Below are positions 2,925 to 2,936 of a stretch of DNA of 63,018 bases, one piece after another. The position numbers and the translations under genes are program-made. The notes beneath the pieces were generated by a model. It did no database searches. It saw only the letters and a program-made list of their open reading frames with translations, and was not told where the DNA came from. Position 1 is the stretch's first letter; every line of letters starts with the position of its first letter. Origin of the DNA: a virus; UHGV virus genome UHGV-0170870; one strand, written 5' to 3'.

Positions 2925-2936
2925 GGGGGGGGGGGG
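2925..2936. repeat. G12/C12 homopolymeric tract between RBS and start codon of minus-strand gene
   Basis: Twelve consecutive G on plus strand; coding strand reads GGAGCC-C12-ATG. Confidence 0.9.

Follow-up and report, generated by a model that had tools for sequence, protein, structure and literature searches.

A length-variable poly-C tract as the Shine-Dalgarno-to-start spacer of a Bradyrhizobium phage gene: a candidate for graded control of translation

Introduction

Unstable repeats are a well-known source of heritable diversity in bacteria and, as recognized recently, in phages; the natural cases known so far operate at promoters or by frameshift. In Bordetella fim and in Neisseria meningitidis porA and opc, transcription is affected by poly-C or poly-G tracts located between the -35 and -10 elements. 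The poly-G tracts of Campylobacter phages are in-frame repeats that switch genes by frameshifting. Contingency repeats within genes, with on/off switching by frameshift, are also found in coliphages T2 and T4 (bioRxiv 10.1101/2025.10.21.683753). In Mycobacterium tuberculosis espR, a one-base change in a poly-G tract of the 5' UTR alters translation efficiency (PMC11898584). Finally, in the synthetic rbSSR designs, as later sources describe them, repeats placed in the spacer of a ribosome-binding site tune translation and are prone to mutation (10.1101/086900; PMC3749727, citing Egbert and Klavins 2012).

[quoted passage not shown] Its sequence, its relatives, its length in other records of the same phage and its modelled effect on translation initiation are set out below and compared with these systems.

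A temperate Bradyrhizobium phage recorded under many names

The window, that is, the whole 63,018-nucleotide stretch analysed (UHGV virus genome UHGV-0170870; 62% G+C), is the complete circular genome of a temperate Bradyrhizobium phage; it is taken as complete and circular because loci in other assemblies leave one of its ends and resume at the other. Its genes encode a PD-(D/E)XK exonuclease, an SNF2 helicase, a RuvC-like resolvase, a GpA-like large terminase, a Prim-Pol/AAA_25 primase-helicase, a family-A DNA polymerase, a tyrosine integrase and an ECF-type sigma factor. The prophage is found integrated in a chromosome of 7.5 Mb; in the assembly concerned, the copies of the phage proteins carry the source name Bradyrhizobium viridifuturi. 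The match of this chromosomal copy to the window ends at ~53802, 86 nt beyond the integrase gene, and that of a second record ends at ~53772; LTXXQ, DctMQP transporter and ExoD genes of the host lie beyond the junction. No tRNA gene was found in the whole window.

The phage is present in hundreds of unrelated public assemblies, as a circle of ~63 kb or as fragments, and its proteins are recorded in ~450-760 blocks of a public collection, the number varying by protein. The source labels on these records include E. coli, Shigella, Klebsiella, Lactobacillus, Aspergillus fumigatus, Streptomyces, Haemophilus, Acinetobacter, Burkholderia and marine metagenomes. Bradyrhizobium is a known sequencing contaminant (PMC4023998, PMC4228153); together with the distribution of the records, this identifies the temperate Bradyrhizobium phage as a widespread contaminant that is mislabelled in databases. 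Neither the PLSDB plasmids nor the complete E. coli genomes gave a hit. Among GenBank phages, no informative DNA match to the window was found (a weak 85-nt match to a Gordonia phage was taken as chance), and the identity of the terminase to those of known phages (Roseobacter phages) does not exceed 37%; the phage thus appears, from these comparisons, to be without a close cultured relative.

Two further features of the genome were observed. A 252-kb contig, JAFCLJ010000011.1, carries a copy identical to the window through 22604 that then diverges inside the ORF at 22488-22991, the divergence starting at locus position 8288 (window 22605), which points to a mosaic relative or module exchange. 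About 1 kb next to the gene for a ParA-like ATPase (18818-19465) is devoid of any convincing gene and holds A5T8 and A9 runs and a palindrome; this stretch may serve in regulation or partition or as an origin.

The tract and its setting

Table 1. Coordinates in the window of the poly-C locus and of the other features referred to in the text.
Feature	Coordinates	Strand	Remark
Poly-C tract	2925-2936	minus	C12 in the window copy; G12 on the plus strand
Shine-Dalgarno core GGAG	2937-2940	minus	context CACGGAG; GGAG at the equivalent place in 5/5 relatives
ATG start codon of the 105-aa gene	2922-2924	minus	N-terminus MRxAxxYRGARRN conserved in homologues
Gene for the 105-aa protein	2607-2924	minus	leftward early replication and recombination operon
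Upstream 171-aa gene	3000-3515	minus	same leftward early operon; TGA 3000-3002, 75 nt upstream of ATG
Upstream ATG, non-conserved	2987-2989	minus	in frame with the gene at C1, 4, 7, 10 or 13
Conserved hairpin	2954-2987	minus	12 bp, one bulged G, 9-nt loop TTCTTCACA
GGAG of the downstream neighbour gene	2589-2592		8-nt spacer
ATG of the downstream neighbour gene	2578-2580		
Control repeat (CA)5	7060-7069		
Gene-poor region	~19470-20510		adjoins the ParA-like ATPase gene
Control run A5T8	20068-20080		
Control run A9	20336-20344		
Prophage-host junction region	53772-53888		adjoins integrase 53888-55015 (minus)
Tandem repeat	56473-56565		40-nt period, 2.3 copies, inside ORF 55993-57837 (minus)
ECF-type sigma factor gene	~58187-58684	minus	165 aa, Sigma70_r2 + r4_2

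On the minus strand the start region reads ...CCTTCAC-GGAG-CCCCCCCCCCCC-ATG-CGT-AAC... (Table 1). A homopolymer of twelve C between Shine-Dalgarno and ATG, the core of the original prediction, is indeed present; the accompanying description, GGAGCC followed by twelve C with a spacing of about 14 nt, over-counts by two, the actual arrangement being GGAG, C12 and ATG with a spacing of 12 nt. No other G/C run in the window is longer than six. With runs of at least twelve expected 0.03-0.04 times under an independent-base model and ~0.001 times under a first-order Markov model, it is far beyond chance, and it exceeds the ~7 bases from which homopolymers of SSR contingency loci are long enough for instability.

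Genome-wide, the distance from GGAG to the start codon peaks at 6 and is mostly 5-9; the downstream neighbour gene has the same CACGGAGCC context. All tract lengths observed except C1 exceed this norm, and C12 is twice the modal spacing. The spacing had been called longer than optimal, which agrees both with the genomic peak and with the 5-6 nt found in the five relatives of the gene.

These relatives are diverged homologous loci (50-67% protein identity) that share the start codon and have GGAG directly upstream of it. Their N-termini follow the pattern M-R-x-A-x-x-Y-R-G-A-R-R-N in all five cases; with this conservation and a GGAG of its own in each homologue, ATG 2922-2924 is the true start. 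In each relative, GGAG is followed by a C-rich spacer of 5-6 nt and ATG, e.g., ACGGAGACCCCATG, and the homopolymer is absent (GGAGgcaccATG, GGAGaccaccATG, GGAGaccccgATG, acGGAGaccccATG and GGAGcgctcATG). Because the five relatives have such short spacers and lack the homopolymer, the tract is a lineage-specific expansion from an ancestral C-rich spacer; a single A-to-C change in ...GGAGACCCCATG would be enough to create a C5 seed.

The 105-aa protein belongs to a family of ~89 cluster representatives, all of ~100 aa. Its AlphaFold2 model (mean pLDDT 76.7, four helices) predicts an all-helical protein with a basic N-terminus. Searches of Pfam and PHROG with the protein returned nothing significant, a profile search of the PDB was empty, and Foldseek of the model against the PDB and viral structures gave a best E of 1.4.

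The leader also contains a hairpin that closely follows the stop codon of the 171-aa gene and precedes GGAG by 17 nt. It is conserved across six phages, with compensatory changes in 5 of its 12 pairs and 94% of cells paired. A T-run is absent, and the hairpin is therefore not a classical terminator; its likely role is in processing, stability or partial termination, independently of the tract. Rfam yielded a single match, below threshold, to a flavivirus stem-loop, and this was taken as chance. A scan of positions 1-8000 for sigma-70-like promoters found none. The phage has an ECF-type sigma factor of its own, encoded by a gene immediately behind that for the DNA polymerase; since its promoters may for this reason depart from the sigma-70 consensus, the scan is of limited weight.

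Tract length in near-identical genomes

Table 2. Tract length in 18 records of the phage (assembly consensus).
Length	n	Records
C1	1	QFCD01000886.1
C8	5	Bradyrhizobium chromosomes CM130280.1 and BAAIGB010000001.1; NRZQ01000202.1; SRR34998166; ERR14230674
C9	2	JGI 3300017733; JGI 3300054698
C10	3	Streptomyces iakyrus JNXI01000031.1; ERZ28654953; DAR98595.1 (inferred from its 126-aa translation)
C11	3	JGI 3300045988, contig _018044; Phycicoccus JOEE01000018.1; S. xylophagus JNWO01000078.1
C12	4	window; JGI 3300045988, contig _018046; JADDJV010000103.1; ERZ894292

Tract length was compiled from 18 records (Table 2), in each case as the assembly consensus only, in which a technical share is possible. 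Scans of JGI metagenome contigs gave no further copies of the tract, though protein look-up retrieves the same phage from JGI samples. Over the 6-22 kb compared, the loci that bear the tract show 0-4 substitutions relative to the window, and their flanks are identical; one divergent strain has 12 differences from the window, in a 13-kb locus from another part of the genome. No indel other than the tract recurs in the tract-bearing loci, and the encoded 105 aa are identical in all records, whatever the tract length. As in SSR contingency loci, length thus differs, at the consensus level, between near-identical genomes, and the C8-C11 versions agree with the expectation that a tract of this kind is prone to length change.

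Three short repeats of the same genome served as controls. Of twelve records, three have A8 in place of A9, and in a thirteenth the last A of the run is replaced by C; (CA)5 is (CA)6 in one record; A5T8 is invariant. From A5T8 through A9 to the tract, repeat instability rises with run length. The (CA)5 repeat lies between the divergently oriented RuvC-like and DUF932 genes.

Spacing and translation initiation

Folding of the leader with C1-C16 variants predicts the same structure from C7 to C16, with the hairpin intact and the tract 80-88% unpaired. A length-dependent RNA switch, in which the tract would pair with the G-rich 3' arm of the hairpin, was considered and rejected, since over C1-C16 the hairpin is kept and the tract stays unpaired in the predictions. 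With no riboswitch-like alternative fold predicted, length would act as pure spacing.

The 30S subunit prefers an aligned spacing of 5 nt, and other spacings cost it energy (PMC3936740). With E. coli (not Bradyrhizobium) parameters, and with effects of a pure-C spacer ignored, the RBS Calculator's penalty function predicts relative initiation of 0.88, 0.74, 0.60, 0.46 and 0.34 for C8 to C12, a range of ~2.6-fold, and of 0.004 for C1, ~250-fold down. Such a model is to be trusted only as far as "graded, a few-fold". Phase-variable translation, which had been raised as a possibility for this gene, is accordingly unlikely in the form of an ON/OFF switch: the common lengths, 8-12, would still permit initiation, and only C1 would come near to off.

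The favoured explanation, held with moderate confidence, is that an unstable poly(dC)·poly(dG) repeat in the spacer provides a graded, heritable and reversible "volume control" of translation rather than an on/off switch. Replication slippage would add or remove one base or a few at a rate far above that of substitution, which would leave near-identical phage genomes with C8 to C12 and, in one case, C1. Since the tract is outside the reading frame and is predicted to be unpaired in the mRNA, a change in its length would directly alter nothing but the distance from the GGAG-bound ribosome to the start codon. Relative to an ancestral and genome-typical spacing of 5-6 nt, C8 would be near full strength, each added C would lower initiation slightly, and C1 would nearly abolish it. 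We infer that length variation arises in vivo and changes protein output.

Neutral drift or tuning

The alternative that survives best, though it is considered unlikely, is a neutral mutational hotspot, in which length drifts in vivo for real but within spacings that the ribosome tolerates, so that the drift has no consequence and the tract is not maintained. It differs from the favoured explanation in the fitness consequence only. The absence of the tract from all five relatives marks it as young and lends no support to long-term selective maintenance. The modelled effect of C8-C12 is small, the A9 and (CA)5 repeats also wobble with no obvious role, and the observed lengths show no single favoured value. 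Against neutrality, the genome's sole long G/C run sits at one of the few sites where length sets an expression parameter, and, C1 aside, nothing outside 8-12 has been seen, which selection at the bounds could explain.

A stronger version of the favoured explanation, a selected translational "rheostat", is speculative and on present evidence improbable. The C8 prophage would be near full strength, and lytic replication by the family-A DNA polymerase would expand and contract the tract. If this were true, each burst would release progeny with different doses of an early protein, a form of bet-hedging that could bear on, e.g., host take-over, evasion of defence or the choice between lysis and lysogeny.

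Biological and technical variation

Long G/C homopolymers are known trouble spots in sequencing. It has to be asked, then, whether the tract has one fixed length and the differences come from PCR stutter, homopolymer miscalling and low-coverage assembly of a contaminant; as an account of the whole pattern this is doubtful, with less in its favour than neutral drift. The general difficulty of sequencing such runs speaks for it, as do contig ends within ~250 nt of the tract in at least six records, including a Bradyrhizobium MAG in which the prophage is split there. A cohesive or packaging end at the tract is an unlikely cause of these breaks, the terminase genes being ~22 kb off. Three assemblies from one strain collection (NRRL) read 10, 11 and 11, differing by one. 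The C1 record (QFCD01000886.1) also has A8, not A9, at the control run, either a miscount or a true difference, and a hint that homopolymers were called poorly in its assembly. Because of these two observations, C1 and differences of ±1 may be technical, and PCR stutter, Illumina or nanopore homopolymer errors and consensus from few contaminant reads could account for part of the length spread.

The consensus range, from 8 to 12, nevertheless exceeds the usual ±1. The records also fall into two haplotypes, marked by an extra 40-42-nt copy in the tandem repeat (Table 1) and by substitutions at 61631 and 61677. The extra copy, present in the window and in one other record, contig _018046, lengthens the encoded protein to 610 aa, most records having 596 aa; both members of this haplotype have C12, and contig _018046 comes from a metagenome that holds a separate C11 contig. 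The other haplotype comprises both Bradyrhizobium chromosomes and NRZQ01000202.1, all C8, with further records at C9, C9, C10 and C11. Tract length thus shows a partial lineage consistency. The recurrence of the same values in independent data sets is evidence against pure noise, and the spread of lengths within one haplotype speaks for a tract mutation rate far above the substitution rate. Sequencing error at the homopolymer, offered at the outset as the alternative to real variation, is retained for differences of ±1 and fits poorly with C8 in both Bradyrhizobium chromosomes and with C12 in both records of the 610-aa haplotype.

The phage contaminates hundreds of public sequencing runs, and tract-length distributions are therefore readable from existing data, with CACGGAG...ATGCGTAAC as flanking landmarks for reads that span the tract. 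Data sets with the phage include those behind ERZ894292, SRR34998166 and ERR14230674 and the Bradyrhizobium viridifuturi isolates GCA_053474805.1 and GCA_054653515.1.

Other modes of action

Poly(C) is a classic activator of Rho. Very improbable, and the weakest of the alternatives, are a true ON/OFF translation switch, to which the 1-nt spacing of C1 would correspond (effectively off in the model) but whose off-like state occurs in 1 of 18 records; frame-dependent use of the upstream ATG at 2989, which C10 tracts place in frame and which one database entry annotates, but which has no Shine-Dalgarno, lies inside the conserved hairpin stem and is missing from the relatives; and use of the leader, C-rich and predicted to be unpaired, as a Rho loading site.

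The entry in question, DAR98595.1, is a C10 record annotated as a protein of 126 aa that begins with MTPRPFFTGRGVPSPSRSPPP followed by MRNADS, because C10 puts the upstream ATG in frame. This N-terminal extension was rejected on the three grounds just given, and the upstream ATG is probably not used. In practical terms, the tract breaks assemblies and causes mis-annotation.

Comparison with known repeat systems

With the Bordetella fim and Neisseria porA and opc tracts, the tract shares its nature, a G/C homopolymer of ~8-15 bases, as well as slipped-strand mispairing and an unchanged protein. Their tracts are promoter spacers, whereas this one abuts GGAG and ATG and no flanking sigma-70-like promoter was found in positions 1-8000; on this evidence it does not lie between -35 and -10, or between an activator site and -10, as the tract of a promoter-spacer switch does. 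The loci of T2, T4 and Campylobacter phages resemble it in being unstable phage repeats that give rise to heritable diversity among progeny. Those repeats are inside reading frames, whereas the tract is outside the frame and can change spacing only; it is not an in-gene frameshift repeat, the start and N-terminus downstream of it being conserved in the five relatives. The espR tract is likewise a G/C homopolymer upstream of a start codon; it differs in lying at the 5' end of the leader, where RNA refolding has been proposed; the present tract forms the spacer itself, and folding predicts no rearrangement that depends on its length.

In the literature searched, of which coverage was incomplete, no natural repeat that forms the Shine-Dalgarno-to-start spacer was found. 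If the rheostat were true, this would be the first natural contingency locus to act through Shine-Dalgarno-to-start spacing and the first in a phage that does not act by frameshift.

The likeness is greatest in mode of action to the rbSSR family, itself synthetic: an unstructured repeat fills the spacer between Shine-Dalgarno and start, initiation would be graded by repeat length, and the repeat is itself unstable in length. The rbSSR elements are engineered poly-T or poly-AT repeats on E. coli plasmids, whereas the tract is a natural poly-C in an alphaproteobacterial phage and its effect on expression is predicted. If the tract does tune translation, evolution has arrived at a device that synthetic biologists built.
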